The notes under the pieces are model-generated. The model was not told the origin of the DNA. It did not search any database and saw only the letters and a program-made list of their open reading frames with translations. The position numbers and the translations under genes were made by a program. Of a stretch of 64,000 nucleotides of DNA, positions 8,855 through 56,772 are shown piece by piece. Within the stretch, counting starts at the first letter, position 1. Every line of letters begins with the position of its first letter. Source of the stretch: an uncultured Pseudomonadota bacterium (GTDB taxonomy: Bacteria; Myxococcota_A; UBA796; SXON01); NCBI GenBank assembly GCA_903844155.1, contig CAIMSU010000113.1:96361-160360 (forward strand). Reading direction: 5' to 3'.

Positions 8855-10784
8855 GTCCAGCCGGACCGGCGACGATCGAGCGGCTCATGAGCGCTGCGAG
8901 GCGGGCGGCGAACCCGGGCGCGTCGTCCACATGGCCCTCGGCGAGCTGCGCGTAGTCGAGGAGCAGGCGTGCCAGAGGCTTGGCGCTGGCGAGCTTCTCC
9001 GGGTCGTCGACGCCGGCCGCGTGCAGGCCGACGAGCTGACGCACCAGCGCGTGCTCGGGGTTGAGCTCCAGGGTGCGCTGGGCTTTGGGCACGTCCTGAC
9101 GGGCAGATCGCAGGATCCGCTCCATGTTGGACGTGACGCCGAACTCGGAGTCGACGAGGACAGCCGGGCTGTCGGTGAGGCGATTCGAGGCGCGGACGCC
9201 ACCGACCTGGCCGGACAGCTCGTCCTTGAGCCAGCCGATGAACGGCTCGGCCTGCTTGCGCGCCTCCTCGGCGATCGGGTCGTCGTTCTTGTCGTCGAAC
9301 TCGCCGCGGGCGACCGACTTGATCGGCACGCCCTCGAATTCGTTGAGGTTCATTGCGACCCATTCGTCGACCGGGTCGGAGAGCAGCAGGACCTCCCAGC
9401 CCTTCTTCTTGAAGCGCTCCAACTGCGGGTTGGCGCGCATGCGGCCAAGGTCGAGGCCGGTCAGGTACCAGATGGTGTCCTGTCCGTCCTTCATGGCGAT
9501 CTTGTAGTCAGCGAGCGAACGCCACTTCCCGGGGACGGTGGGCTTTCCGGCGTCTGCTGCGTCCTCGGCTGGGGCTGGCGGTTCGACTGCCTCGGCCGTC
9601 GACCGGAAGCGCAAAAGCGGGATGAGCTGGTCCTTGTTCTCGCTGTCCTCGGCCACGCCTTCCTTGAGCGTGGTCCCGAAGTTCTCCCAGAACGTCAGCC
9701 AGCCCTTCTCGTCCTCTCGCGAGAGCTCTTTGAGACGGCGAAGCACGCGTTTGACGAGCTGCTTCTTGATGGCGCCGATGACCGGGGTGTTCTGGAGCAG
9801 CTCCCGGCTCACGTTGAGCTGGACCTCGGGCGCGTCCACCAGCCCGCGCACAAAGCGCAGGTAGCGCGGGAGGAATTGGTCGGCGGCGTCGAGGACGAGC
9901 ACGCGGCGCTGGTACAACCGAAGGCCGCGCTTCACCTCGGGATGATCGAGGTCAAACGGGCGACGTTCGGGGAAGAACAGGACCGACTGGAATTCCAGCG
10001 GCGCTTCGGTCGTGATGTGCACCCAGGCCAGCGGGTCCTGCCAGTCCTTCGCGACGTGCTTGTAGAAGCCCTTGTACTCGTCGTCGGTGACCTCGCGGGG
10101 GTTGCGCGTCCACAGCGCCTGGGTCTGGTTGACGCGCTCGTCACTCCCGACGGGGCCCACGAACACAGGATAGCTCAAGAAGTCCGAGTGCTTCTCGACA
10201 ATTTCGCGCAGGCGGCTGTCGTCGAGGTACTCGGTGCAGTCGCTGCGGACGTGCAGGACGACGTCCGTACCGCGCGTCGTGCGGGTGCCTGGCTCGATCG
10301 TGAATTCGCCGCCGCCGTCGCTCGTCCAGCGGATCGCCTCCGCCCCGGGCTCGCCCGAGAGCGAGTCGACGACGACCTTGTGCGCGACCATGAAGCTCGA
10401 GTAAAATCCAACGCCGAACTGGCCGATCAGGTTGGTGTCGCCTGCGGGCGTGCCCTTCTCCTTCAGCGCAGCGGCGAACGCCTTCGTGCCAGACTTGGCG
10501 ATGGTGCCGAGGTGATCGACGGCCTGTTCGCGCGTCAGCCCGATGCCGACATCGGAGATGGTGATGGTGCCGTGGTCCTTGTCCGCCCAGACGCGGACGG
10601 CAGCCTCGCCCTCGGCGGCGCGGAGATCGCTGCGGGAGAGCTCCAGAAAGCGGGCGCGATCCAGCGCGTCGGACCCGTTGGAGATCAGCTCGCGGAGGAA
10701 GATCTCGCGGTCGGAGTACAGCGAGTGCACGACCAGATCGAGGAGCTGCTTGACTTCGGCTTGGAAGGGGAGGACGTCGGCCAT
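8835..10784 (-). CDS. htpG: Molecular chaperone HtpG (Hsp90 family)
   Basis: ORF 8835..11129 trimmed to ATG 10784, preceded by AAGGAAA Shine-Dalgarno. MADVLPFQAEVKQLLDLVVHSLYSDREIFLRELISNGSDALDR (Bergerat ATP-lid N-box). About 649 aa, full-length Hsp90 architecture. Confidence 0.95.
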   Translation of the reverse strand: MADVLPFQAEVKQLLDLVVHSLYSDREIFLRELISNGSDALDRARFLELSRSDLRAAEGEAAVRVWADKDHGTITISDVGIGLTREQAVDHLGTIAKSGTKAFAAALKEKGTPAGDTNLIGQFGVGFYSSFMVAHKVVVDSLSGEPGAEAIRWTSDGGGEFTIEPGTRTTRGTDVVLHVRSDCTEYLDDSRLREIVEKHSDFLSYPVFVGPVGSDERVNQTQALWTRNPREVTDDEYKGFYKHVAKDWQDPLAWVHITTEAPLEFQSVLFFPERRPFDLDHPEVKRGLRLYQRRVLVLDAADQFLPRYLRFVRGLVDAPEVQLNVSRELLQNTPVIGAIKKQLVKRVLRRLKELSREDEKGWLTFWENFGTTLKEGVAEDSENKDQLIPLLRFRSTAEAVEPPAPAEDAADAGKPTVPGKWRSLADYKIAMKDGQDTIWYLTGLDLGRMRANPQLERFKKKGWEVLLLSDPVDEWVAMNLNEFEGVPIKSVARGEFDDKNDDPIAEEARKQAEPFIGWLKDELSGQVGGVRASNRLTDSPAVLVDSEFGVTSNMERILRSARQDVPKAQRTLELNPEHALVRQLVGLHAAGVDDPEKLASAKPLARLLLDYAQLAEGHVDDAPGFAARLAALMSRSIVAGPAGPTASAS

Positions 10785-41975: not shown

Positions 41976-42752
41976 CTACTGCATGGCCGCCCGGACAGAT
42001 TCCCCGACCGGGCCGGGCCCCGGACCGTCACGCCCATCGAGCCGTACGACCGGCGCCAGCTCCTTCAGCGTGCTGCAGAGGTAGAGCTCGTCCCACAGTT
42101 CCGCGGCTGACGGCGCCTCTTCGTGGACCGTGACACCCAGCGAACGCGCCGCCGCCAGCACCCGCGCTCGCGTCACCCCCGCGAGGATCCGCCCGTCGAG
42201 CGGCGCCGTCCACAGCTCGCCGCCCCGGATCGCGATCAGGTTGGAACGGTTCGCCTCCGTCCAACAGCCCGCTTCGTCGCGCCAGATCACCTCGTCCACG
42301 GGCTCTCCAAGCGTGCGCGAGGCCTGACGGACGGCCAACAGCCAACCAACGCGGCTGGTGTGCTTCACGTGCCCCGGGAGCCAGGGAATTGGCGCCACGG
42401 GCATCGTTGCGCAGCGCGCGGGGGCGCCGATGCGGGCGAGGTCCAGGGGGAGCGCGCGCAGGAGGCGCTGGCTCTCGGTCAGCAGCACGTTCAACTTGAG
42501 GTCGCCGCTGGGCTCGGTGGCGGCGAGGCCGCGAAGCTCACGCTCGGTAGCGGCCCGGTCCCAGGCCCACCCGAAGAACGCCGCGCTGGACGCGAGGCGA
42601 TCGAGGTGGTCGTCGAGGCAGAGGACGCGCCGGCCGGACGCCGTCGTAACGGTGCGAAGCGTCTCAAAGACGCCAGCGCCGGTCCAAAGCGCGCCGTCGT
42701 CCACGTCGAAGCCGCCGGGGACGAGCGGCTGCCCGCCCAACAGGGTGGTCAC
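41976..42752 (-). CDS. Class IV aminotransferase-fold protein (aminodeoxychorismate lyase/PabC-like)
   Basis: GTG start overlapping the upstream stop (GTGA). GVFETLRT, SNLIAIRGGELWTAPLDGRILAGVTRARVL patterns. 258 aa. Confidence 0.75.
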   Translation of the reverse strand: MTTLLGGQPLVPGGFDVDDGALWTGAGVFETLRTVTTASGRRVLCLDDHLDRLASSAAFFGWAWDRAATERELRGLAATEPSGDLKLNVLLTESQRLLRALPLDLARIGAPARCATMPVAPIPWLPGHVKHTSRVGWLLAVRQASRTLGEPVDEVIWRDEAGCWTEANRSNLIAIRGGELWTAPLDGRILAGVTRARVLAAARSLGVTVHEEAPSAAELWDELYLCSTLKELAPVVRLDGRDGPGPGPVGESVRAAMQ

Positions 42753-45424
42753 TCGCCGTCCTCCGCGTCGTTCGCTCCCGGGATGCCCGTCGGGACCTGC
42801 ATGGCTTTTGCCCGCAGCGAATCAACCGAAACGGGCTGGTCCATGCCGTCTGCCGCGGCGACGGGCATCGGGTTGGGTGTCCCTGGCGGGCGCAGGCTCG
42901 GCATGCCGGCCATGCGCATGACCTCGCGCTCGTCGTCAGTGTAGCCGGCCTTGACGTCGGGCGGCAGGGTGGGGTCCTTGCGCGCGGCCATCAGCCACTG
43001 GTAGACCGCGGAGAGCGCGTGGTGGACGTAGTCGATGCGGACCTTGGGCTCGTTCATGGCGTAGCGGATGCCGCCGAGGACCATGTCGGGACGCGAGTAG
43101 GCGTGCGTGTCGAGGTTGTCGTGCTGCATCTGCAGGGCAAAGCGCACGGTCTCACGGGAGTGCTTTTCAAAGTACGCGGATTGCGTAGTATCCATGCGGA
43201 TCGCCATGTCGTAGGCCGCGGAGGTGCCCTCGCCGTAGCAGAACGCCTGCATCGCCGGCAGCTCACCCTCAAACTTGTAGTAGCCGCCGACGTAGTCGGG
43301 GAACGGGGCGTTCTCCTGGGTGTATTCGTAGCTGTCGATCATCCAGCGGGCGACGTCGAGGCCGAACTTTGCGACATCGTGCGCGTGGGGGACGGCGCGG
43401 GTGTAGGCGCTCGCGGCCATGACGGTCCAGGGGCCGAACTGCACAAGATCAAGGCGGGTTTCGTTGTCGTAGATGTACGCAGGCCAGGGGCCGACGTTTG
43501 ACTTCTTGGCCGCGCGCTCTGCGTACCACTGCTCGTAGTGCGCGAAGAACTTCGGCAATCCGGCGAGATAGCTGGGATCGTGGAAATACTCTGAGAGATA
43601 CACCAGCGAAAGCGCCGCTTCCCCCGGCACGATGTCGTTGACAGAGGTGTAGTACGGGTGGTCCTTGGGGACGTGGTAGCCGGCGAAGCTCCCGTCTGCG
43701 CGTTGCATGAACTCGACAAACCGTCCCTGCTGGCGCATCAGGTCGTCGTACTGATGGTCGTTTGTCTGGCGTGCGACCTCGATCATCCCGAGCAGGCCGA
43801 CGACGACGCTGCCGAGCTTGGTGTTCTTGTCGTAGGTGTAGTACGCCATCCCGTTTTTCAGGATGTCGTCCTTCATCGGGCTCGCGTTCACGGCGTCCAA
43901 CTCCCAGCCCTTGAGGTTGGAATGGTCGCGGATCTGCAAGGATTGAAGCGTCCAGTTCTGCGCTCGGATGGCACCCGACAGGAACTCGGGCCGCGGGTCC
44001 AGCGTATATGCCTCCCAGAGATTCCAGGTCGCCAACGTGTGCCGAACATGGTTGTCCTCGTTGGAGAACCGTGCCTCCTCGGGCCAGTATTTGTAGACGA
44101 CTGCGCCGTCCGGCTTCAGGCTGCGGATGTACCACTCCGCGGCCATCAGCACCGAGTCGCGGGCCGAGTCAACGTTGACGTCACTGAGCGGAACCGGCGT
44201 TGTCCCTCGGTAGAAGGGGATCACGCCATGGGACTGGATCGTGGCGGTCGGGTCGCCGGGCTTGGACGGGTCGGGCACGGTCTTGACGACCTCCACCCAA
44301 TGGATGTCCCGGATCAGGTCCAGATCCACGGCGGCGTCCTTCCACGGCTTGACGCTGTCCCACTTGAATTGTCGGGCTTCGGCCTTGAGGAACTGCGCAG
44401 CGGTCGTGTAGCCGCGCACTGCGGCGACGGAGCCCGGAAAGACGCCGCTTTGCCCGTTCTTGCCGGCCTTCTTCTCCTCAGCCGTCGGCTTTTGGACGAA
44501 AACCGCGCCGTCCACGCCCATCTCAAACAGGTCCTCGATCTTGTCATCGTCGCGCGGGATGACCCACGCGCGCTCGGTGATGCGGTGCATCTCGAGCTGG
44601 TAGCCGGGCATGGCGAGCTTCAGGATGGGAAAGCCAAGGGTCTCGCGGTCGCGGCGGTACATGGACTCCAGATCGTTCACGGTCTCGATCAGCGCCTTGT
44701 CGAGCGTCAAGCCGGAGGCCAACGAGATCGCGAGCTCCGAGCCCTGGCCCCGCACCGTCGTCACCAGGTTCCAGTCCTTCCGCTCTGCCTTTTGCTCGGG
44801 AAAGGCCGGCGGGCTCTTGCCCTCGAGCACGTCGCGCACCCAGTGGATCGCGGGACTCGCGATGTCGGGTGGGAAGGCGAGTGGCTTGTCGACGAGCAGG
44901 TAGACGAACGCACCGTCCTCGACGCCTGCGAGCTCAAAAAAGTGCAGATCGTCGTGGTGGACGAGGCGGGACAGCACGCGCTGGTCGCGGTCGAAGCTGG
45001 GGCCGATGTCGCTGTGCACGATGAGGATGCGGGCGTCGGTCTTGCGGAGCATCGTCGAGAGCGCCTGCTCGTCCGTCCCCATGAGCGCGGTGCGGTAGGC
45101 GGGGTCGCGCAGGTCGATGGCTTTTACCGCAGGATCGAGGCCGTCAAAAGTCCCAGGAACGTCGACGACGACGGGCGCGTTGATCTTCTTGATCAGCGCC
45201 TGGGACTTCTCCGAGAGCGGGACCTCCGGGGCGGCGGCCCAGGCAGCATCGGCACGAGCGGCGTAGTCCGCGCCCTGGACGAGGATCCCGGAGCCGGAGC
45301 CGGTGGCCTGGACGACACCGCCGACGGTGGACGGGGTGCACGCGCCGACGCTCGAGAGCGCGACGAGGGCGAGCAGGCCGGACAACAGGAGCGGGCGGGA
45401 CGACGGGGACAACGTGAACCTCAA
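42749..45424 (-). CDS. Large lipoprotein of unknown function (possible AMMECR1-like middle segment, helical-repeat C-terminal half)
   Basis: TTG start. Signal MRFTLSPSSRPLLLSGLLALVALSSVGAC. The segment GVDGAVFVQ...GQSGVFPGSVA...TTAAQFLKAEARQ resembles the AMMECR1 core by eye (weak). The C-terminal ~450 aa are helix-rich with recurrent W/Y motifs. Confidence 0.6.
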   Translation of the reverse strand: MRFTLSPSSRPLLLSGLLALVALSSVGACTPSTVGGVVQATGSGSGILVQGADYAARADAAWAAAPEVPLSEKSQALIKKINAPVVVDVPGTFDGLDPAVKAIDLRDPAYRTALMGTDEQALSTMLRKTDARILIVHSDIGPSFDRDQRVLSRLVHHDDLHFFELAGVEDGAFVYLLVDKPLAFPPDIASPAIHWVRDVLEGKSPPAFPEQKAERKDWNLVTTVRGQGSELAISLASGLTLDKALIETVNDLESMYRRDRETLGFPILKLAMPGYQLEMHRITERAWVIPRDDDKIEDLFEMGVDGAVFVQKPTAEEKKAGKNGQSGVFPGSVAAVRGYTTAAQFLKAEARQFKWDSVKPWKDAAVDLDLIRDIHWVEVVKTVPDPSKPGDPTATIQSHGVIPFYRGTTPVPLSDVNVDSARDSVLMAAEWYIRSLKPDGAVVYKYWPEEARFSNEDNHVRHTLATWNLWEAYTLDPRPEFLSGAIRAQNWTLQSLQIRDHSNLKGWELDAVNASPMKDDILKNGMAYYTYDKNTKLGSVVVGLLGMIEVARQTNDHQYDDLMRQQGRFVEFMQRADGSFAGYHVPKDHPYYTSVNDIVPGEAALSLVYLSEYFHDPSYLAGLPKFFAHYEQWYAERAAKKSNVGPWPAYIYDNETRLDLVQFGPWTVMAASAYTRAVPHAHDVAKFGLDVARWMIDSYEYTQENAPFPDYVGGYYKFEGELPAMQAFCYGEGTSAAYDMAIRMDTTQSAYFEKHSRETVRFALQMQHDNLDTHAYSRPDMVLGGIRYAMNEPKVRIDYVHHALSAVYQWLMAARKDPTLPPDVKAGYTDDEREVMRMAGMPSLRPPGTPNPMPVAAADGMDQPVSVDSLRAKAMQVPTGIPGANDAEDGE

Positions 45425-45489
45425 GGGCTGCGCGCGGTATCAAGAAACCGGCTCGCCCGGGGGTCAATCTCAGCCTCCCGCCTCCAGCC

Positions 45490-45873
45490 TCACTCCACGT
45501 CCATCTCCGCGTGCCATTCCGTGCCCTCGTCACACGAGATGTCCGCCGTGGTCAAGGCGATCGCGCTCTGCCCGACGAAGTCGTAGGTGTACTTGGGGCC
45601 GTCTGTCGAGAGGTTCGTGTAGATGGGGTCGTTGGGGACGTCGATGCCGTCGCCGAGCGAGAGCGCACAGTCGGGAAGCTCGCGGCTGACGTGCAGATCG
45701 AGGTAGATGTGGCCGTCGTCCGGGCTGGACGTGTCAACCGCGACGGACCAGTAGCCACAGGTGTCCGCCTCGGAGAGGACGCCCGATGGCGAAGTCGAGC
45801 TTCCGGGGAACGTGCAGGGCGGTGATCCGCCGCACGCGGACAGCGCAGCGACAGCAAGAAGCACCGGTCGCAT
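45490..45873 (-). CDS. Small lipoprotein, unknown function
   Basis: MRPVLLAVAALSAC lipobox. ATG 45873 overlaps the upstream stop (TGATG); GTG 45876 is an alternative start. Four further Cys residues. Confidence 0.6.
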   Translation of the reverse strand: MRPVLLAVAALSACGGSPPCTFPGSSTSPSGVLSEADTCGYWSVAVDTSSPDDGHIYLDLHVSRELPDCALSLGDGIDVPNDPIYTNLSTDGPKYTYDFVGQSAIALTTADISCDEGTEWHAEMDVE

Positions 45874-46322
45874 CACGGGTTCACAAGGCAGGCGCTCTGC
45901 AGCGGGATCCGCTTGTCGGTCGCCTGACCCGTTTGCAGGTACGCCAGCACCGTGACCTGCTGACCCTCCTCAACCTTCGCGAAAGCGGCGGCGTTGGCGT
46001 CCGGAAAGTAGGCCTGGACCTTGCCCTTTCCGATGGGTCCAGAGCGCAGGCCGATGAACGCCCCGCCGTCGTCTCGGCTCACGCGCGTTGCCTCGCCGGT
46101 CACCTGCAGCAGCTTCTGGCCGCCGTACGCCGTCTCGGCTTGGAGCACGTTGCCCCCAAAGGCCGCGACCAGCTCGTTCGGCGCGACCGTCACCCGCTCC
46201 TTCGGCGGGTTCGCACAGTCGAATTCGGGCGTGCCCGTCATCCTCGCCACGTCCCCGCAGGCGAGGGTGGCGAGCGTCAGCACGGTGGACAAAACGAGGA
46301 GGGCCGGAGGATGTCGTCGCAT
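45873..46322 (-). CDS. OB-fold (tRNA_anti-like family) lipoprotein
   Basis: ORF 45873..46646 trimmed to ATG 46322 (MRRHPPALLVLSTVLTLATLAC). Pattern NELVAAFGGNVLQAETAYGGQKLLQVTGEATRV...GQQVTVLAYLQTG fits the tRNA_anti-like OB-fold family by eye. GATACG-N8 lies upstream. Confidence 0.6.
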   Translation of the reverse strand: MRRHPPALLVLSTVLTLATLACGDVARMTGTPEFDCANPPKERVTVAPNELVAAFGGNVLQAETAYGGQKLLQVTGEATRVSRDDGGAFIGLRSGPIGKGKVQAYFPDANAAAFAKVEEGQQVTVLAYLQTGQATDKRIPLQSACLVNP

Positions 46323-46330
46323 CGGCGCGA

Positions 46331-46336
46331 CGTATC
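46331..46336 (-). promoter_or_regulatory. GATACG box 8 nt upstream of ATG 46322 (TA at -12/-11)
   Basis: The minus strand reads gggGATACGtcgcgccgATG, with no Shine-Dalgarno. Confidence 0.3.
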
Positions 46337-46372
46337 CCCCGGCCCCCGTGCCGGCGACGCGGGTCGGCGCGC

Positions 46373-47356
46373 CTACTGCGCGATCGCGAAGCTCCCCTCG
46401 GTGGCGTACTCTGCGGGGGTGTACGCGCAGTCGCTCTCGCTGCCCTCGGTCGGCTCGATGTTGGCGGTGTCCGTGTAGTAGACGCGCGTGAAGCTCGTTC
46501 CCCAGCATTCGGACGCGCTCACGACGGTGGTGCCGATGTCGCCGCCGGTCACCTGCACGTCGCCACGGCCCTGACCGTCGGCCTGCCAGCGCGACCGCAT
46601 CGTCGCCAGCTCGTCCTGGCCGCGCCCGTCGATGTCCGCCAGCCACGCCAGGTCCATGTCACCGGCGCCCTGGTAGTCCTCGTTGTAGGCGTAGGCCGCG
46701 TTGACGAGGGAGCCGCCCGCGAACCCGTAGTCCGTGGCCGCCACGACCGCGCCCACCCCGCTGGCGTCGTACGCGTACTGCACGCCCCACGTGCCGGTGA
46801 GATTGTTGCCCGGGTCCATGCCGTGCGCGGTGGTGAAGTCGACCGCGAACTGCCCGGACGCGTCATCGCGCGTGGACCCGGCGTCGACCTGACCCGCGAC
46901 GATCCCGACGGCATCGGTGTCGACGGAGCCGCCGTTGGGAACGTAGAAGACCGACCAGGTGTAGCTGCCGTCGTCCTGGGCCTGGACCCAGATGCCCGTG
47001 GACACAGGATCGAGGCCGGACTTCTGGTACGGGCCCCACATGGCCTCGGTCTTCGTGTCGTCGGTCCATGAGGGTGTCTGCGTGCCGACGACGAGCGCGA
47101 CGGTGCCGAGGATCGCGGTGATGATGCCGTTCACGTCCTGCGTCACGTTGCGGGTGACGACGTAGTCCTGCGCCCAATCCGTGCTGGAGCCGTTGTCCTT
47201 GGCGGTCGTGCTGTCGACCGGGAGGTTGACCTCCAGCTTGTCCTGCGTCGGCAGGATGTCGTCGTGGTAGGCCGAGGCGGGGTCGTAGCAGCCGGCGACG
47301 AGGGAGACGGCGAAGGGGAGGGCGACGGAGAGAGCGTGCGAGAAAGACCGGTTCAT
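46373..47356 (-). CDS. Lipoprotein, unknown function (Asp/Gly/Thr-rich beta protein)
   Basis: ORF trimmed to ATG 47356, preceded by AAGAGG Shine-Dalgarno. MNRSFSHALSVALPFAVSLVAGC lipobox. No family recognised. Confidence 0.7.
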   Translation of the reverse strand: MNRSFSHALSVALPFAVSLVAGCYDPASAYHDDILPTQDKLEVNLPVDSTTAKDNGSSTDWAQDYVVTRNVTQDVNGIITAILGTVALVVGTQTPSWTDDTKTEAMWGPYQKSGLDPVSTGIWVQAQDDGSYTWSVFYVPNGGSVDTDAVGIVAGQVDAGSTRDDASGQFAVDFTTAHGMDPGNNLTGTWGVQYAYDASGVGAVVAATDYGFAGGSLVNAAYAYNEDYQGAGDMDLAWLADIDGRGQDELATMRSRWQADGQGRGDVQVTGGDIGTTVVSASECWGTSFTRVYYTDTANIEPTEGSESDCAYTPAEYATEGSFAIAQ

Positions 47357-47447
47357 GGGAGCCTCTTTGCGGCGACCGCCGCGGTGGTGGGGTGCGCTTA
47401 TCTGACCCACGAGGCGACCGGGAGTGAAACGGTCGGGCGAAAAAACC

Positions 47448-47840
47448 TCAGGTGTTGTCCCCGCCATCGCAGTTGGAGTCAACGCCATCGTTGGGCGTCT
47501 CCGTGGCGCCGGGATGGATGGCGGGGTCGGCGTCGTTGCAGTCGGTGCCGCCGTCCGAGGCCGCGTAGTAGTGGTCGCCGTCGTTGTCGACGCCGCTGGT
47601 GTCCTGCCCGGAGTCGACGAACGTGTCGTCCATCGGCGCCACGCCGTACTTGGCGACGGGGACGAAGCAGGCGTCGAGGGTGGCCAGGGAGAGGCCGAGG
47701 GCGATGGACGCGGCGGACGGGAGGCGTAGGCCGGGCTCGGCGGTCTGGAGATGTGCGCCGCAGAACGGGCAATTTGCGTCGCTCGCGCGGGAGGTGAAGG
47801 TCCGGACGTAGCGGCCGCAGGCGGTACAAATCGGGAGCAT
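47448..47840 (-). CDS. Mini-protein: N-terminal CxxC...CxxC zinc ribbon, hydrophobic segment, single MopE-like Cys/Asp module (paralogue 1)
   Basis: [28 protein letters not shown]; hydrophobic SAASIALGLSLATLDAC; C-terminal [46 protein letters not shown]. The ATG overlaps the stop of paralogue 2, and there is no alternative in-frame start downstream. Confidence 0.7.
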   Translation of the reverse strand: MLPICTACGRYVRTFTSRASDANCPFCGAHLQTAEPGLRLPSAASIALGLSLATLDACFVPVAKYGVAPMDDTFVDSGQDTSGVDNDGDHYYAASDGGTDCNDADPAIHPGATETPNDGVDSNCDGGDNT

Positions 47841-48199
47841 CAGGTGTTGTCCTCGCCGTCGCAGTTGGAGTCGATTCCGTCGTTCAAAACCTCGGTTGCA
47901 CCGGGGTTGATGGTCGCGTCGTTGTCGTTGCAGTCCGTGCCGCCGTCACTCACGGCGTAGTAATGGTCGCCGTCGTTGTCGACGCCGCTGGTGTCGTGCA
48001 CGGAATCGCCAGGGATGTCGTCCATGATCGCGACACCGTAGGCGGCGATGGCGCTGCCGTTGCACGCGAGGAGGGGGGCTGTGATGAGGCCCATCAGCAG
48101 GACGGCCGCGCGAGGCGTGCTGCTCGCACGAGGGACCGGCTGACCGCACGTCGGGCAGATGGCGCGGACGTGAACGCCGCAGGTCGGACACAGTTGCAA
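47840..48199 (-). CDS. Mini-protein: zinc ribbon, lipobox-containing hydrophobic segment, MopE-like module (paralogue 2)
   Basis: (M)[18 protein letters not shown]; [16 protein letters not shown]; [46 protein letters not shown]. Start uncertain: TTG 48199 is chosen by analogy with paralogue 1. ATG 48313 or 48328 would overlap the divergent PBP gene. Confidence 0.6.
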
Positions 48200-48311
48200 A
48201 ACGCACCTCTCCCCGGAGAATAGCACCGCAAGCGGGTCTCCGCGATGATCCAGATCCGCAGAGGGGGGATCTGGATCATGGGGTGGCACGCGGCTTGCGT
48301 TGATCCGGGAC

Positions 48312-51300
48312 ATGAAGCGTTTCTTCAAGCGACTTGCGCTGGTGTTGCTCGTCCTGCTGGCGGTTGGTGGGGTCGTTGCGAAGGTGCTCTACCAGCGCGA
48401 CGTTGTGGACGATCCCGGCCCGGGATTCACACGCGCGGAGATCATGGCGATCATCGCGCAGGAGTCCCCCGTCACCTACCGCGACGGCAAGACGCCGATC
48501 GGCGTGTTCTTCGATTCCGAACATCGCAGCTACGTTTCGTATACCGACCTCCCGCAGGACTGGATCCACGCGATCCTGTCCGCGGAGGACGCCAACTTTT
48601 TCACGCACCATGGCTTTGACCCCAAGCACATCCTGCTCGCGGGCTGGCGCAACCTCGTGGCCGGTCACGTCGTCGCCGGCGGGAGCACGCTCTCGCAGCA
48701 AACAGCGAAGAACCTGTTCTACCGCCCGGACCGCTCCTGGTCGGCCAAGGGCGACGAGGCGGTCAACACCTTGCGACTCGAAGCGCACTTCTCCAAGGAG
48801 GACATCCTCGAATTCTACGCGAACCAGTTCCATGTGAGCGCGAACGGCCGCGGCATCGGCATCGCCGCGCGCTACTTCTTCGACAAGTCGCCGAAGGACC
48901 TGTCGACGAAAGAGTGCGCGTTCATTGCCGGACTTGTGAAGGCGCCGAGCAAGTACAACCCGTTCGTGGGGGAGAGCGAAGAGCGGCGGAAGGCGGCGAC
49001 GGCCGCGGCCGAGGACCGCACTGAGTACGTACTTCGCCGGATGTTCGAGAACGGCTACCTCGACCATCAGCGGTACGCCGAGCTGCAGAAGGAGCCGCTG
49101 GTCTTCCGTCACGGCAACTTCCAGTACGACCGTTCCGTGGTGCTCGACGAGGTGCAGCGCGAGCTGGACTCCCAGACCTTCGTCGACCTCTTCGCGCGCC
49201 TCGGCATCGACAACCCGAGCACCGCGGGGATCCGCATCACCACGACGTTGGACGCGGACGTTCAGCGCGAGGCGATCTACGGCCTCTGGCACCACCTGAC
49301 CGAACTTGGCCCGAAGCTGGAGCGGAAGGCGCCCGCGGACCTGAAGCTGCCTGACAACACCATGATGGAGATCGACCCAGGAATTGCGCTCGTCAAACAT
49401 GGGTTCTACACCGCGCGGGTCACGGAAGCCGGTGCAGCGAGCCTCACGCTTGACGTAGGGAGTCGGCCCTGCACGGTCGACAAGGAGGGGGTGACGCGGA
49501 TCGCCGCGGTGTTGGGCGTCAAGCCGTCCGAGATCACCCCGGCGCTGCCAAAAGGCAGCTTCGTGCTGACGAGCGTGCGCCTGCTGACTGCCGCGAAGCC
49601 GTCCGAGGGGGCGTCTGCGGACCTGGCGGGGCAATGCGATCTCGAGGTTCGCCCGGCGCTCCAGGGCGCGGTCGTCGTCCTCGACCAGGGAAACGTGCTC
49701 GCAATGGTGGGCGGGAACGACAATCGTAACTTCAACCGGGCGACCTCGGCGCAGCGCCAGTTCGGCAGCACGTGGAAGCCCATCGTCTACATGGCCGCGC
49801 AGCAGCTCGGCTGGGTGGCCACGGACACCCTCGACAACCGTAGGAACGCCTTCCCTTTTCGCGACGTCTGGTACTACCCGCACCCCGACCACCCCTCCGA
49901 CGACTTCCTGCCGCTCACGCTCGTCGGCGCTCGCAGCGAAAACCTCGCCAGCATCTGGCTCCTCGACCACCTGACCGATCGCCTCAACCCTGAGCAGTTC
50001 CGCCAGTTGGCAGACGCCGTGGGGCTCGGCGGCGCCGATGGCATCGCCGCGGCTCGCCAGCATGAGGACATCCGGTCTTCCCCCGACCGTTTTCCCGAGT
50101 ACGCCTTCCTCGAAGCCCGGGAGGACGTGCTCTCCGGCCTGGCCTTCGCCGCGCACCCCGAGGATGCGCCTGGGCTGCGATCCTTGCAGTACGGGCACGG
50201 GTTCGCGGCCGAACGTGCGCGCGTGCTCGCGACCGCGACCTCGGACGAGCGCACAGCCCGCCTCGGCGCGCTCGACGACAACCTCCTCGCACTGGAAGAG
50301 CTGGCCACGCAATGCGCAGACCCCTCGCTCGGCGCCGACTCGCCGCTCTACGAGGAGCCTGTGGACGGCACCCTCGCGTGCGCCGCGCCCCCGCCCGGCT
50401 ACGAGCGTGTGACCGGCACCGGCGCTGCGACCTGGCCCGCGCTGACCGGCGACGTGCTGGTCGACGGGCGCCTGCACCTCTCAACCCTCCAGGACCTTCG
50501 AAAAGCGCTCGACGCCCACGTTGCCGAGCTGACCGGGAAGGACCCCTGGTCGCCCGAGGTGATGGCGCTGAACCCGGACTTTCGGTTGCTCGTCGGCATC
50601 CGCTACGTGAACCATCTGGCCACGGCCTTCGGTGTGCAGAGCGACCTGCCGACCGTCATGTCGCTCCCGCTTGGCGCCGCGGACATCACGCTCATGGACG
50701 CAGCCAGCATGTACCAGGGGATGTTGCGTGGCGAGCACTACTCGTTTCCCGGCCAGGGCTTCGAGGACACGGGCACAGCGGGCTTGCGCGAGGAGTTCCC
50801 GGTGGGAACGATGGGAATGGGGTTGATCGCGGAGATCCGGGATTCGGGTGGCAACGTGCTCTACCGGGCGAGCACCAGGGCCGAGGCTGTGGCCGATCCG
50901 GTCTCCGGTGAGCTCACCGCGGACATCCTTCGGAATGTCGTGAAGTACGGCACTGGGCGCCGCGCGCTGGACGCCGTGAAGGTCGGGGACCAGTCGGTCG
51001 TGGCCGTCGGCAAGACGGGGACGACGAACGAGTACAAGAACGTGGCCTTCGTGGGTATGGTCCCCAAACACCCGACCGGCGCGAACGTGAGCGGGCGATG
51101 GGGCGACGGGTACACCATCGCCGCGTACGTTGGCTACGACGACAACCGACCGTTGAAGCGGGGAAGTTTCCGGGTCCAGGGCGCTTCCGGTGCGCTTCCG
51201 GTCTGGATTGCCACGGCGCGAGGCATGGCGGACGCCGGGTTGCTCGACACTGTCGCCGAGTACACGCCTGCGCCCGGCCTCGTTCGTGTGCCCGTGCCGG

Positions 51301-52173: not shown

Positions 52174-53036
52174 CGTCGTCGGTTTTGATAGGTGGGGAAG
52201 ATTGGGGAGCGGCGGTCGGGGCGGCGGGGCGCGGCGAGTGGCTGATCCTCCGCGCTGCGTGGTCCGCGGTGGAGCCGAAGCGGGGCGAGTACGACGAGGG
52301 GCTCATCGAGGCGGATCGTCGGGCGCTGATCGCCGCCCGGAAGCAGGGCGTGGAGGTGATCCTCGTCGCGCACAGCGGGGGGCTGCCGGACTGGCAGATC
52401 GAGCGGGACGGCTGGCTGGATGGCGACGCGTTGGCGGGGTTCGGCTGCTACGTCGACCGCCTGGCGCACGCGTACGGCGAGCTCGTCCGGCACTGGGTCG
52501 GGCTCTGGGAGCCGCTGGGCGAGGCGGCAATTTATGAGGCGGACCGCGGGAAGGTCGCGCGCACGCTCCTGGACGTCCAATCGAGCGCGTGGCTGCACCT
52601 GCGAAAGGCGCCGGGACCGGGTGGCGCGGGGACGGTGGTGGGGGTGGCGGAGCGCTTCGACGTGGTCAGCCGGCGACGGGATCGCCTCGGGGCCGACGCC
52701 CTCGGGCGCATCGCAGGCGCGCTGGGCCGGACGGCGGCCGAGGAGGCATGGCGCAGGTCCGCGCCCCACGCGCTGGTGGCCGTCTTGAGCAGCGGACGCC
52801 TCGCCCCCCCGTTTGGCGCGGTGGGCGAGCTTTCTGGCGGCACGGCCGCCTCGGACTTCACGGTCGCGCTCCGGCCGACGGTGCAGGACCTGCACCAGAT
52901 CTGGCTTACGGGGCGGGCCGTGTTCGTGCTGGGCGATGTCGGCGTGGCCGAGGAGGCCGCTAAGCAGGGCGTACGGGTCCTTGGCGCCGCTCCCTACACC
53001 GGCTCTTCCACCACCTCAAACCTGCCGAAGTCGTAG
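52170..53036 (+). CDS. Short GH1-like (beta-glucosidase-fold) protein with degenerate catalytic motifs
   Basis: GTGA overlap with maf. The N-terminal half parallels GH1 (WSAVEPKRGEYDEGLIEADRRALIAARKQGVEVILVAHSGGLPDW...DGWL...FGCYVDRLAHAYGELVRHWVGLWEP), but NEP is WEP and no ITENG-type nucleophile motif is seen. Only 288 aa. Confidence 0.5.
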   Translation: MTSSVLIGGEDWGAAVGAAGRGEWLILRAAWSAVEPKRGEYDEGLIEADRRALIAARKQGVEVILVAHSGGLPDWQIERDGWLDGDALAGFGCYVDRLAHAYGELVRHWVGLWEPLGEAAIYEADRGKVARTLLDVQSSAWLHLRKAPGPGGAGTVVGVAERFDVVSRRRDRLGADALGRIAGALGRTAAEEAWRRSAPHALVAVLSSGRLAPPFGAVGELSGGTAASDFTVALRPTVQDLHQIWLTGRAVFVLGDVGVAEEAAKQGVRVLGAAPYTGSSTTSNLPKS

Positions 53037-54208
53037 CGTTCTCCGGCCGCGCGCTCGACCTGGACGAGGCGCTCGCGAATGCCTTCGCGGCGCAGTTGCA
53101 CCACGCGGTGGTAGCAAAGCGGGTTGTTGCCCCGGCGCCCCAGCAGTGTGTGTGCGGTGAACGAGCACCCGCCCTGGCAGGTATCGGCGTAGTAGCAGCG
53201 CTTGCAGTAGCCCCAGAGCTCATCGGAGCGCTGCGCACGAGCGAAATTCAGCGCGTCCGCGTGCTTCCAGATCGCGTCCAGCGAGAGGCTCCGAACGTTG
53301 CCGCCCGTGTACGGCGCCGTCGGCAGCGACGGGCAGCCCTTCACCGTGCCATCGCTCTCGATCCCGATCACCGCCTTGCCCGCCGCGCAGCCGATCCAGT
53401 GGCGCGCGCTCCCGCCCGGTCTCGACCGCAGCACCTCCTCGTGCGGACCGAAGTAGCCGACGTTGTTGGCAGCCTGCACATTGAAGCAGCCGAGCGGACG
53501 CGGCTTTTCCCAGGCGCGGGGGTTCGCGACGGCGTCCAGCTGGATGGCGGCGAGGGTGTCCAGGATGGTCACGACGTCCGACGGCTGCACGATCCAGTCG
53601 GGGTGGTCGGCCGCGTTCCCCATCGGCGTCGTGAGCTGGACCTGCCACGACCGCACCTTGTGGTCGCGCAGCATCGCCGCCGTCTCCCGCAGCGTGTGCT
53701 GGTTGAGGCGGTTGATCTGCATGTTGGATGTCACGATCAGCCCGGCCGTCTGCACGTTTTGGACGGCCTGCAACGCCGCCTTGTGGCTCCCCTTGTTGCC
53801 GCGGAGCGTGTCGTGGGCGTCCTCGAGGCCGTCGATGCTGATGCCGACGGCGGCGAGGCCAGCGTCTGCGAACCGCTCGCAGCGCTGCAGGGTCAGTGCC
53901 CGCCCGCCCGACTGCATCGTCACCCGCATGCGCAACCCGGCGATGATCCGGATGATCGCCTCGATGTCGGGGCGCAGGTACGCCTCGCCGCCGATGAGCG
54001 TGACCTCTCGGCAGCCGAGTCGTGCCAGCGCCGTCGCCACCTCCTCGATCTGCGCGGTGGTCAGCTCCTCGGCCCGTGCCGAGCCAGCGCGCGTGCCGCA
54101 GTGCTGACAGGGCTGGTCGCAGCGCGTCGTCAGCTCCCAGACCGCGTAGATCGGCTTCGGGTCGTCAAGCTCGGCGATGCGGAACTCGCGGGCGAGGGGA
54201 GCGGGCAT
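52994..54208 (-). CDS. Radical SAM enzyme with C-terminal SPASM/twitch-type auxiliary cluster domain
   Basis: ORF 52994..54565 trimmed to ATG 54208 (MPAPLAREFRIAEL...). CxxxCxxC = CDQPCQHC. C-terminal Cys clusters IGCAAGKAVIGIESDGTVKGCPS and YCKRCYYADTCQGGCSF. Confidence 0.85.
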   Translation of the reverse strand: MPAPLAREFRIAELDDPKPIYAVWELTTRCDQPCQHCGTRAGSARAEELTTAQIEEVATALARLGCREVTLIGGEAYLRPDIEAIIRIIAGLRMRVTMQSGGRALTLQRCERFADAGLAAVGISIDGLEDAHDTLRGNKGSHKAALQAVQNVQTAGLIVTSNMQINRLNQHTLRETAAMLRDHKVRSWQVQLTTPMGNAADHPDWIVQPSDVVTILDTLAAIQLDAVANPRAWEKPRPLGCFNVQAANNVGYFGPHEEVLRSRPGGSARHWIGCAAGKAVIGIESDGTVKGCPSLPTAPYTGGNVRSLSLDAIWKHADALNFARAQRSDELWGYCKRCYYADTCQGGCSFTAHTLLGRRGNNPLCYHRVVQLRREGIRERLVQVERAAGERYDFGRFEVVEEPV

Positions 54209-54268: not shown

Positions 54269-55072
54269 GTGAATGGGAATCCACGCTCGCGCTTCCCGCG
54301 GACGACGGTCGTCGCCTTCCTCGGTGCGTGGGCGTGGGCGAGCGGCTGCGCCCACCACGTGTCTTGGGAGGTTCAGCCAAAGCCGAGCTACAACCTTCCG
54401 AGCGGAGGGACGAGCGGCGTCGTTGTCTCCGTGGTTTTCGACGGTCGGGACTGCAAGCCCGTCGCCGACGCGCTGGTCAGCACCCTCGGCAAACGCACCG
54501 GGATCGACGTGCGCTCCGGCGCCGGGATCCGCCTCGAGGTTCGAAACTGCGACCGCGGCCAGCAACGGACCATGGAATTCGACGATGGGATGGACGCGGC
54601 GACCGGGTCGATGGCGGGCTCGGCGTTCTCCGGCGGGCCGGACAAGCGCCGCTACACGATCCGGGGCTGGTCGTCGGCCGAGCTGTCGGTGATCAGCGCC
54701 ACGGGCAGCTCCGTCGTCCTCTCGGGCTCGGCCAACCGCACCGTCAACAGTCCGTGGGTGCCCGACGACGACCTCGACGTCAACCGCTCCATCAGCCTCG
54801 CGGACGATCTCGCCAACGAGGTGGCCGGCAACCTGGCGAACCAGCTTGCGCCGGTGCCTGTCTCGCTACGCCGAACGGTCTACTCGGACGCGCCCCCAGG
54901 GTCGGCGCACGACCTGCACAACCGGGCGGTCGCGGCCGAGCAGGCGGGGGATCTCGTGGCTGCCCTGCGACTCGCGAGGCAGGCTCAAGCAGAGGACCCG
55001 TGCCGCGCGGGTGCCGAGTACGTACTCGCGCTGCAGGCCCACGCGAGCACGGTGGGCGAAAAGGTCTTCTAG
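54269..55072 (+). CDS. Lipoprotein, unknown function, with C-terminal TPR-like helices
   Basis: ORF 53096..55072 trimmed to GTG 54269 ((M)NGNPRSRFPRTTVVAFLGAWAWASGC lipobox). C-terminus HNRAVAAEQAGDLVAALRLARQAQAEDP. The stop shares the tetranucleotide CTAG with the convergent AAA+ gene. Confidence 0.65.
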   Translation: MNGNPRSRFPRTTVVAFLGAWAWASGCAHHVSWEVQPKPSYNLPSGGTSGVVVSVVFDGRDCKPVADALVSTLGKRTGIDVRSGAGIRLEVRNCDRGQQRTMEFDDGMDAATGSMAGSAFSGGPDKRRYTIRGWSSAELSVISATGSSVVLSGSANRTVNSPWVPDDDLDVNRSISLADDLANEVAGNLANQLAPVPVSLRRTVYSDAPPGSAHDLHNRAVAAEQAGDLVAALRLARQAQAEDPCRAGAEYVLALQAHASTVGEKVF

Positions 55073-56772
55073 ACCCGATTTCCGAGCTGCATCCTCAAGA
55101 TGTCCAGCTTCGCCAGTACGTCCGGGGTGGCGAGCGAGGCGAACCGCTCGGGCAGCATCCGCCGCGCAGAGCTCTCGAACACCGCCAGCATTTCCATGTA
55201 CTCCAGCATCCGCACGTCGCGGCTGGGGATGGTGTCGGCCGAGGCACGGGCGAGATCCTCGGCGCCGATGTGGGTGCGGGCGTCCCAGGCGGCGAAATTC
55301 GTTGCGGCGAGCACGACCGCCTCGATCTCCGCGGCGGAGTAGCCTTTCACCGCCTCGACCACGCCCAGCAGGTCGACGCCGTCGGCCATCGGCAACTCCG
55401 AGCGCCGCAGCACGGCACGGATCACGGCCTCGCGCTCCGCGGCATCCTCCGGGTAGAAGAAGGGGATCTTCAGATCGAAGCGACCGGGGCGCTTCAGGTC
55501 CGTGTCGAGCTTGTCCGGCCGGTTCGTCATCATCAGGATGATGATCCGGCCACGGTGGCTTGTGTCCGACATGAACTCCTTCAACCGGGCGATCACGCGG
55601 CTGCCTGTGCCGCCGTCGCCGTCGCCCCCGCCGGCCAACGAGCGGTCGGCCTCGTCGATGATGAGGAGGACGTAGCCCAACCCCTCCACCACCCGAAGGA
55701 TTTTCTCGAGGTTTCCCTCGGTCGAACCGACCCACTTCTCCCGGAAGTTCTTGAACTTCAGGCAGGTCAGCCCGCTCTCCTTCGCAAACGCCTCGGCGAG
55801 GAACGTCTTGCCCGTGCCCATCGGCCCGACAAAGATGGCGCCCATCGGCACGCGCCCGCGCTGGTTCTGCTTGATCGCCTCGGCAACGCGCAGGAGCTGC
55901 TCCTTCACGGCACCCATCCCGCCGACCCCGCCAAAATCGTGCTTCGGGTCGACGAACTCGACGAGCCCGTGGCACTCCTGCTCGATGATCGCCTTCTTCT
56001 TGCGGTTCACGGACGCAAAGTCGACCTTCTCGCCGGACTGCCGGGCCTGGCGCAGGAAGCCGCGAATCTGGACGAGGGTGAGGCCCGCGGTCACCTGGCC
56101 GAGCTGGAGCTCGGTGATGCCGAGCGTGATGCCTCGCTGATCCTGGAGGCGGATGAACTGCGAGCGCTCGTCCTGGGCGGGAAGCGGGACTTCCAGGACC
56201 GCGAGGTTGGACGACGCGACGAGGCGGCGGTGGACGTCCGAGAGGTTCTCGGTGACGAAGATGACGAGGTTGTCGGACGACGTCAGCCCGGGGTCCGCGC
56301 CGAGGCGAAGCAGCGTGACGAGGTTCTGCTTGTCCTGCTCGCCCATGAACGAGATCTCGCCGTTCGGCACGATCATCTCGATGAAGTCGACGACGACGGC
56401 GGCGCGCTGCGAGGGGTCGGTGACCAGATCCTCGATGAGGCCAAGCACGCCCGACGGGCTCTTCGGCAGCTCGGTCACCGGGTCGCGGCCGTCGAGCAGG
56501 CGACGAGCGCTCACGCCGCGCTTGAACGTGGCCAACTGCGCGGCGTTCGCGAACTCCACCCCCTCGGACACGTTGTAGTACAGCACCATGTCCTTGTTTC
56601 GACCAAGGAATTTCGTCAGGAACTCCCGCAGCGCCACGTAGCGGATGGTGCCATCGGCGTCCGTCCACGGCTGCACGTCCCGAACGTTCCCGTGGATGAG
56701 GAAAACGCTGGATTCACCAGCGAGATAGCGGGCGCGCAGGCCTTCGGCCCAGCGGGGGAGGATTGGTTCCAT
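55069..56772 (-). CDS. AAA+ ATPase (classic clade) with degenerate N-terminal ATPase-like domain and one active AAA module
   Basis: Walker A GPMGTGKT; Walker [10 protein letters not shown]; sensor-1 MMTNRPD; second region of homology with RPGRFD. The N-terminal ~250 aa have an AAA-like layout, but [12 protein letters not shown] replaces the P-loop and [11 protein letters not shown] replaces Walker B. Confidence 0.85.

Follow-up and report, generated by a model that had tools for sequence, protein, structure and literature searches.

The window analysed here is a 64,000-nucleotide stretch of contig CAIMSU010000113.1 from an uncultured bacterium (positions 96,361 to 160,360 of the forward strand). 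It carries two small adjacent genes, par1 and par2, members of a myxobacterial family, not described before, of very small predicted lipoprotein precursors with a ribbon placed ahead of the export signal. A gene for a radical S-adenosylmethionine (SAM)/SPASM enzyme recurs near the genes of this family, and this genomic coupling suggests that the mini-proteins are the enzyme's substrates. The same layout is found in ~90 metagenomic and genomic relatives of 65–270 amino acids (aa), whose carriers include Nannocystaceae, Polyangiaceae, Sorangium cellulosum, Enhygromyxa sp., Nannocystaceae bacterium ST9 and many metagenome-assembled genomes of Myxococcota.

Both par1 and par2 are real open reading frames (ORFs) on the minus strand, and their products are built alike, with a ribbon, a basic residue, a short hydrophobic stretch with a lipobox-like Cys, a Tyr-Gly (YG) motif, a linker and a single Asp/Cys module:

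47840..48199, minus strand: par1, a 119-aa ribbon-lipobox-YG-MopE mini-protein with a TTG start, its ribbon homologous to those of all relatives
48146..48190, minus strand: par1 putative zinc ribbon, C4xxC7-x7-C15xxC18
48062..48112, minus strand: par1 predicted signal segment, R30, 12–15 uncharged residues and lipobox LLAC46
48023..48049, minus strand: par1 YG motif, IAAYGVAIM, with Y54G55
47843..47980, minus strand: par1 C-terminal Cys/Asp module (PF11617), MopE motif at residues 89–117
47448..47840, minus strand: par2 (P0001), a 130-aa ribbon-lipobox-YG-MopE mini-protein with an ATG start
47760..47828, minus strand: par2 putative zinc ribbon, C5xxC8-x15-C24xxC27
47667..47726, minus strand: par2 predicted signal segment, R39, hydrophobic stretch SIALGLSLATLDAC58 interrupted by D56, atypical lipobox LDAC58
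47631..47657, minus strand: par2 YG motif, VAKYGVAPM, with Y65G66
47451..47588, minus strand: par2 C-terminal Cys/Asp module (PF11617), MopE motif at residues 100–128

An earlier note on this DNA had described the two genes as adjacent minus-strand paralogues in which a stop overlaps an ATG, and this was borne out: base 47840 is common to the TGA stop of par1 and the ATG of par2 (TGATG, a one-base overlap), and the proteins are 55% identical by BLASTP (E = 2e-40). Their C-terminal halves are 77% identical, in agreement with that note's count of ~52 identities in the last 66 residues. The three-part layout that it saw, with a ribbon, a lipobox-like segment and a MopE-like module, also stands for both proteins, in which PF11617 (Cu-binding_MopE, 'putative metal-binding motif', a model of a 30-position motif) scores 40.8 bits (par1) and 43.6 bits (par2) against a gathering cut-off of 27, with one C-terminal copy each. 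This module is the last part of either protein (...DSNCDGxDNT). The AlphaFold2 (AF2) model of par2 has a mean per-residue confidence (pLDDT) of 70.6, with values of 60–78 in the ribbon and 83–93 in the C-terminal module, a disordered linker, and a single helix at residues 43–58 (16 residues, low confidence); compared with the PDB by Foldseek, it gave nothing significant, and the ribbons returned were generic ones (RpoP, thioredoxin-2 zinc fingers).

Relatives found with the full-length proteins were few but clear, with all parts kept, and a profile of the N-terminal part alone (A1) recovered ~70 proteins of 65–125 aa. An exhaustive HMMER search with a ribbon-plus-signal profile (A3) added further members; its top ranks were unrelated multi-ribbon repeat proteins, and its full-length single-stretch matches were all small (82–174 aa). 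No NCBIfam or Pfam model covers the mini-proteins. In the 70 relatives on which our statistics for the ribbon, signal stretch, lipobox and MopE module are based, the ribbon starts at residues 4–8, typically in the form CxxC-x10-CPHCG; all four of its Cys are invariant family-wide, and conservation across the family is highest in the N-terminal module. The part that follows the lipobox Cys (median 58 aa) is acidic, with many S, T, G, D and E residues. It includes the MopE-like PF11617 module in 28 of the 70 relatives and lacks it in 42, other C-terminal ends being acidic repeats, Gly-rich repeats (Sorangium) or a ~130-aa Cys-rich domain. Judged by these counts, the module is optional and does not define the family, contrary to the earlier note, which had made it part of the layout. 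Between 1 and at least 5 mini-genes occur per locus. At L009 (6585–9039) the ribbon-lipobox-YG-MopE genes form a tandem array of five or more, in which two further small ORFs have been called, and at L035 (6340–8016) two members of 258 and 271 aa, directly downstream of the enzyme gene, have the ~130-aa Cys-rich domain in place of the MopE module or acidic repeats.

The post-Cys part contains YG in 87 of 89 members, and there a Tyr is followed by Gly with a probability of 0.70, against a Gly frequency of 0.14. The consensus around the motif is [EQ][PA]xYGV[PA][DE][TS]; YG[VTI][AP] is present in 55 of 92 members versus 0.7 expected from shuffles, and YG is sometimes repeated two to four times in one protein.

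We consider the ribbon to be translated because the alternative start of par1, an in-frame ATG (M36) located 3′ of the ribbon, would leave the protein without a basic n-region, just 10 residues ahead of the Cys, and because every relative keeps its N-terminus 3–8 residues ahead of the first CxxC. The par1 TTG at 48199 has a GGAGAGG Shine-Dalgarno sequence 6 nucleotides (nt) 5′ of it. The ribbon and signal region of par2 is 73% identical to that of its orthologue at L003, and the ratio of nonsynonymous to synonymous differences (pN/pS = 0.25) indicates that this region is under purifying selection. The existence of M36 shows the earlier note to have been wrong in stating that par1 has no alternative start downstream of the ribbon, while its conclusion that the ribbon is translated stands; it had looked to homologues lacking the CxxC pairs, or starting downstream of them, as counter-evidence, and the relatives keep both the ribbon and the position of the N-terminus. 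Public annotation starts par1 at M36 (P0005, 84 aa), and the NCBI/ENA calls for the second gene of L001 (10372–10746, 81 aa), for L033 (7210–7530, 74 aa) and for L034 (4404–4922, 134 aa) also begin past the ribbon, favouring an internal ATG or GTG over an upstream TTG, GTG or ATG. These four calls speak for a start-codon artefact, in which the ribbon would be untranslated and the true products would begin downstream, as annotated for par1. We find this scarcely credible: ~90 sequences agree in the four Cys, in the Pro that follows the third of them and in where the N-terminus lies, and the pN/pS value, the Shine-Dalgarno sequence ahead of the TTG and the missing basic n-region at internal starts all count against it. 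Since public gene calls repeatedly cut off the ribbon, the ribbon-lipobox architecture is hidden in current databases.

In the 70 relatives, an R or K is followed by an uncharged stretch (median 13 residues, 12–15 in most) that leads up to the invariant Cys. LTGC is the commonest lipobox (27 of 70), and most conform to L[ATSG][GA]C, including LAGC, LTAC and LAAC; the LLAC of par1 is acceptable. A signal peptidase II (SPII) substrate should have ~7–22 uncharged residues in its h-region after a basic residue, and par1 and par2 both agree with this. The helix of ~18–20 or more residues expected of a type II anchor is not seen, the stretch having a median of 13 residues and the AF2 helix 16 at low confidence. 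Given a hydrophobic stretch as long as that of a signal peptide, and not of a transmembrane helix, and a lipobox under selection, we favour a lipoprotein signal peptide with an N-terminal ribbon extension. Of the two topologies that the earlier note had left side by side, the cleaved pre-sequence fits the short stretch, the preceding R or K and the L[ATSG][GA]C pattern better, and the type II membrane protein fits them less well.

A radical SAM/SPASM partner enzyme

The gene that accompanies the family lies 4.8 kilobases (kb) from par1 and par2 in the window:

52994..54208, minus strand: radical SAM/SPASM enzyme (P0230), 404 aa, with a CDQPCQHC motif and the full SPASM Cys pattern

The earlier note overlooked both this enzyme and the YG motif, which together bear most of the functional information. 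By Pfam, the enzyme contains Radical_SAM and SPASM alone, with no PqqD-like recognition element (RRE), the leader-binding domain in or beside maturases of ribosomally synthesized and post-translationally modified peptides (RiPPs). Its scores against the models of two NCBIfam 'peptide maturase' families, TIGR03913 (394.4 bits, curated cut-off 591.75) and TIGR04103 (395.8 bits, cut-off 725), place it in a sister family of these two; the nearest solved structures are SkfB and PqqE.

The enzyme was compared by tblastn with each locus fetched through the mini-proteins. Of 17 such loci, 12 have an orthologue of the enzyme (52–68% identity, 52–64% by tblastn) no more than 5 kb from the mini-genes, abutting them in L007/8, L011, L012, L014, L017, L027 and L031 and lying 1–5 kb away in the window, L001, L009, L013 and L030. 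Searching from the enzyme instead, a ribbon-lipobox gene stood directly beside it in all four loci examined: 10 bp upstream on the same strand in Sorangium cellulosum (CP012670; L032, 5430–7215), convergent and abutting in L033, divergent at ~80 bp in L034, and as two copies directly downstream in L035. Of the 21 loci from the two search directions, 16 have the enzyme within 5 kb and 11 have it abutting the mini-gene. When the neighbours at 9 loci were compared all against all, the enzyme and the mini-proteins were the only conserved families, with no third conserved gene beside them and no RRE/PqqD, dedicated protease or transporter conserved near the mini-genes.

A second line of evidence connects the ribbon itself with the enzyme. 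The ribbon pattern search also matched loci of Bradyrhizobium and other alphaproteobacteria (L020-22, L025), where the match is the C-terminal tail of an enzyme homologue (41–43% identity; L020 3867–5354 in Bradyrhizobium) that scores 499 bits against TIGR03913 and aligns with that model through position 451. These fused ribbons (LVLCQSCEEYIYAGERLCPHCGA) score 29–34 bits on a hidden Markov model (HMM) built from mini-protein ribbons alone, above the maximum of 25.3 bits that the same HMM gave for the 929 ribbons of the 128 best multi-ribbon proteins among 1.84 billion representatives. Positions 426–452 of the TIGR03913 model match the mini-protein ribbon (E = 1e-4). The window enzyme is without a C-terminal ribbon, its alignment stopping at position 389 of the 477 in that model, and myxobacterial enzymes end (...GRFEV) just short of where the fused tail begins. 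The presence of the same ribbon subtype in the enzyme or in its neighbour provides a Rosetta-stone argument for physical interaction between the two proteins.

The alphaproteobacterial enzymes are preceded by one or two small genes encoding M..(A/P)YGTAIN...QGDLKGA...KKK in all six cases. We infer that these products are the 'GDL motif peptides' of the NCBIfam title; no NCBIfam family covers them. The YG motif of MopE-type members, such as AAYGVAI in par1, is the one that most resembles their AYGTAI or PYGTAI.

Several further observations concern the enzyme genes. At L009 the orthologue, 1.1 kb downstream of the array, lies inside a 1439-aa gene called by the source. Long enzyme matches (P0264, P0275, P0309 and P0286) were considered as natural fusions of enzyme and partner and were rejected, being just over-extended N-terminal gene calls. 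At L030 (8019–10389) genes for a cytochrome P450 and a 2Fe-2S ferredoxin come after two ribbon-lipobox genes on the same strand, with the enzyme orthologue 3.8 kb off at the contig end; the P450 might act on Tyr as a second tailoring enzyme. An AAA ATPase gene (55069–56772, minus strand) adjoins the radical SAM gene of the window; it is 88% identical in L001 and absent beside the enzyme in all other loci.

Proposed maturation route and its alternatives

In the route that we propose, and to which we would give about an even chance of being correct, par1 and par2 are precursors of small lipoproteins in which the ribbon docks the maturase, the YG is modified before export, and LspA removes the ribbon together with the signal peptide. 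The Cys4 ribbon would fold in the cytoplasm and remain there, recruiting the RRE-less enzyme encoded at 52994–54208, which would in turn modify the conserved Tyr-Gly located 8 (par1) or 7 (par2) residues past the lipobox Cys. This modification would have to precede export because radical SAM enzymes are cytoplasmic. The short hydrophobic segment would then drive Sec export, Lgt would lipidate the Cys, and LspA, cutting before the Cys, would serve as the 'leader peptidase'. The expected product is a lipid-anchored, acidic, largely disordered peptide with a modified YG site, to which this lineage would add one disulfide-stabilised, Asp-rich module, probably binding Ca2+ or another metal. The genes and their conservation, the family, its linkage to the enzyme in genomes, the kinship of the ribbons and the common YG motif are observed; zinc binding, docking of the ribbon on the enzyme, YG as the modified site, lipidation and cleavage are all steps that we infer from sequence and synteny. 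More tentatively, and at somewhat less than an even chance, the family may represent a previously unrecognised class of ribosomal, radical-SAM-modified lipoproteins. Its leader would be a zinc ribbon fused to a lipoprotein signal, with the ribbon, which other phyla build into the enzyme, docking an RRE-less SPASM maturase; Sec, Lgt and LspA would act as exporter and leader peptidase and leave a modified Tyr-Gly peptide anchored to the envelope.

A number of observations weigh against this route. Five loci (L015, L016, L018, L029 and the contig of P0020) have no enzyme within 5–8 kb; in the window itself the genes for PBP1A, Maf and a 288-aa protein intervene between the enzyme and the mini-genes; and in many loci the two are convergent and so not co-transcribed. 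The enzyme is also unusually conserved for a RiPP maturase, with ~60% identity across myxobacterial suborders. The occurrence of the ribbon as an enzyme domain in alphaproteobacteria means that a substrate 'leader' role in myxobacteria is not the sole reading of it, and zinc-ribbon Pfam models stay under their cut-offs in par1 and par2 (DZR 20.9 bits vs 27.3). Both lipoboxes of the window are weaker than the family consensus, and the LDAC of par2 (Asp at −2), like the LNAC (Asn) of its orthologues, fails the standard pattern [LVI][ASTVI][GAS]C at the core of PROSITE PS51257. That rule places the Cys within residues 15–35, with a basic residue in the first 7, and Cys46 of par1 and Cys58 of par2 fall outside this range; the Cys lies so far from the N-terminus because the ribbon precedes the signal, and it is this deviation that makes the proteins unusual. 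With respect to the modified site, the Sorangium partner has GYTT in place of YG, two members have Y-x-G-G, and YG can be followed by V, A, S, I, P, D or G, a variability that speaks against a fixed three-residue crosslink.

The strongest competitor, which we regard as rather unlikely, is that the mini-proteins are uncleaved N-in/C-out signal anchors. The cytoplasmic ribbon would then permanently tether or regulate the enzyme at the membrane, standing in as a separable counterpart of the ribbon that other enzymes have at their C-terminus, and the periplasmic YG/MopE tail would have a separate job. The fused ribbon of alphaproteobacterial enzymes is readily accommodated in this way, as are the 16-residue AF2 helix of par2, the poor lipoboxes of par2 (LDAC) and its orthologues (LNAC), and the fact that the family is best conserved in its N-terminal module. 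A stable transmembrane helix would usually be longer than the uncharged stretch, with its median of 13 residues, however, and an anchor has no need of an invariant Cys that is mostly accompanied by L at −3 and G or A at −1. Anchoring would also leave unexplained why the YG motif is shared with cytoplasmic alphaproteobacterial peptides. Cleavage after modification by the enzyme remains the reading we prefer.

Two further alternatives were considered. The mini-proteins could be ordinary envelope lipoproteins of the local cell-wall cluster, for example an Lpo-like partner of PBP1A, with a neutral ribbon and an incidental enzyme. In the window, L001 and L003 alike, the adjacent gene on the divergent side is indeed that of PBP1A and the downstream side has four lipoprotein genes, and an M23 peptidase gene is inserted in L001; but this context, including the synteny with PBP1A, is absent from all more distant loci, the only family-wide conserved neighbour is the radical SAM enzyme, and the ribbon is under purifying selection, so that we judge this explanation improbable. 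Less probable again, in our view, is a role in handling copper or other metals as secreted proteins similar to MopE/CorA, with the Cys/Asp module as their functional core. Such a role would agree with the PF11617 scores above cut-off and with the match of the family profile to residues 4–45 of MopE* (2VOV; E = 1.3e-9), yet this match spans ~42 of the 336 residues of the MopE* chain, and the module is missing from 42 of 70 relatives.

Local neighbourhood of the tandem pair

The closest relatives, L001/L002 (GCA_009692605.1, 'Myxococcales bacterium') and L003-L005, have the same tandem pair in the same neighbourhood, and in them too the second mini-gene overlaps the first and carries its own ribbon. 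Downstream of par2, four consecutive genes for predicted lipoproteins (42749–47356, minus strand) encode 327, 149 (tRNA_anti-like OB fold), 128 and 891 aa; three of the four are without a family match, a class IV aminotransferase gene comes next, and the set is syntenic in L001 and L003 only. The earlier note had placed the pair at the head of a long operon of lipoproteins. It was right that the downstream same-strand genes begin with lipoprotein signals, but their arrangement is conserved only in L001 and L003, and the comparison of related genomes to which it had pointed gave a similarly divided answer, with the tandem pair kept at these two loci and the PBP1A/lipoprotein context lost elsewhere. 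A Lpo-like or PBP1A-linked function was considered on the strength of the synteny with PBP1A, Maf and the downstream lipoproteins and was rejected, as this synteny occurs only in L001/L002 and L003-L005 and is gone in all other loci. The genes for PBP1A, Maf, the AAA ATPase and the lipoproteins of the downstream operon have counterparts in L001 and L003 alone, a context found in this lineage only.

Between par1 and the PBP1A gene lies one further feature:

48200..48299, no strand assigned: divergent intergenic region, par1 to the PBP1A gene, holding a 13-nt perfect inverted repeat

The two arms of the repeat (48245–48279), ATGATCCAGATCC and GGATCTGGATCAT, are 13 nt long, match perfectly and stand 9 nt apart, within a ~50-nt insertion that L001 and L003 lack in the corresponding regions; the repeat could be an operator or the footprint of a small insertion. 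Beside the PBP1A start, AACGCAA-N5-GTGCCA is common to the window, L001 and L003. A scan of 47200–48450 for promoters and terminators found none.

Upstream of the first mini-gene, L003 retains the Shine-Dalgarno sequence and last 15 codons of a deleted copy (569–617), and L001 a more decayed remnant (~9985–10003). The window thus corresponds to copy 1 plus copy 2, and L001 and L003 to a remnant plus copy 2 plus copy 3; from these remnants, the tandem array gains and loses copies. The C-terminal halves are closer within a genome (77–78% aa identity for par1/par2 and the two genes of L001) than between orthologues across genomes (53–62%), which could reflect concerted evolution or co-selection of the copies. 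Recent gene conversion as the cause finds no support in the synonymous difference (pS), which between par1 and par2 in this half (0.48) is no lower than between genomes; pS for the C-terminal halves is ~0.5 within and between genomes alike, saturated at the high GC content of third codon positions and hence uninformative.

Comparison with known systems

A full-text literature search returned no paper that joins zinc ribbons to SPASM maturases, SPII signals or lipoboxes. Nor did it return any on TIGR03913 or TIGR04103, for which we also found no published chemistry. Each component is of a familiar type, be it the SPASM maturase, the precursor-like peptide, the zinc ribbon or the lipoprotein signal, and it is their combination, together with the exchange of the ribbon between enzyme and peptide, that appears undescribed. 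If the proposed route is correct, it would join lipoprotein biogenesis to radical-SAM peptide maturation, fields that are normally separate, and would exemplify RRE-free substrate recognition through a small Zn domain that can be placed on either enzyme or substrate. It would also supply a substrate and a testable YG motif for a large, conserved and uncharacterised SPASM clade that is present in cultured Sorangium cellulosum, and would hint at what the NCBI 'GDL motif peptide' systems act on.

Those systems are the nearest parallel. TIGR03913 ('GDL motif peptide-associated radical SAM/SPASM maturase') and TIGR04103 ('nif11-class peptide radical SAM maturase 3') represent the same enzyme clade as the window enzyme, and the TIGR03913 systems likewise have one or two small tandem peptide genes beside the enzyme, a YG(T/V)A(I) motif and a zinc ribbon of the same subtype. 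They differ in that the ribbon is on the enzyme there and on the peptide here, and in that the window peptides have a predicted lipoprotein signal, would be exported and have no GDL helix.

The Asp/Cys module invites comparison with MopE*/CorA (2VOV), with which the sole shared part is the ~42-residue motif DxDxDG...DC(D/N)D...P.A.E...DG.DSNCDG. The window proteins end right after this motif, and homology over the copper-binding body is not seen. PF11617 covers only a small region of MopE/CorA (PMC6189053). The module also weakly matches a region of acyloxyacyl hydrolase and should not be read as evidence for copper handling.

Generic proteins that combine a zinc ribbon with a transmembrane segment (Pfam DZR, zinc_ribbon_2) resemble the mini-proteins in having an N-terminal CxxC..CPxCG ribbon followed by a hydrophobic segment. 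One of them, P0068, has a zinc ribbon and a true transmembrane segment without a lipobox, whereas the mini-proteins are distinguished by a segment of signal-peptide length, an invariant lipobox Cys and the link to a radical SAM enzyme. Precedents exist for signal peptides that are extended or that yield functional fragments: autotransporters have the extended signal peptide region (ESPR), which is conserved and N-terminal, and the enterococcal pheromones are cut from lipoprotein signal peptides. Neither is known to have a metal-binding fold or a linked modifying enzyme.

Cytoplasmic radical SAM/SPASM enzymes that act before export are exemplified by anSME/AtsB, on exported sulfatases, and by QhpD, on the QHNDH gamma subunit. 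As in the proposed route, a substrate bearing an export signal is modified before it crosses the membrane. Those substrates are enzymes or subunits with ordinary signals or leaders and are not known to carry a zinc ribbon or lipobox, and the chemistry is on Cys or Ser (formylglycine, thioethers) rather than on Tyr-Gly. With RiPP precursors such as those of the PqqA/PqqE and SkfA/SkfB pairs, the mini-proteins share a conserved N-terminal part, a variable C-terminal part, a short conserved motif and tandem paralogues; they are encoded by small genes coupled to a maturase gene and can be divided into a conserved leader and a variable core with a conserved motif. The difference lies in the leader, which here would be a putative folded Zn domain joined to a lipoprotein signal, and in the product, which would stay a lipoprotein.

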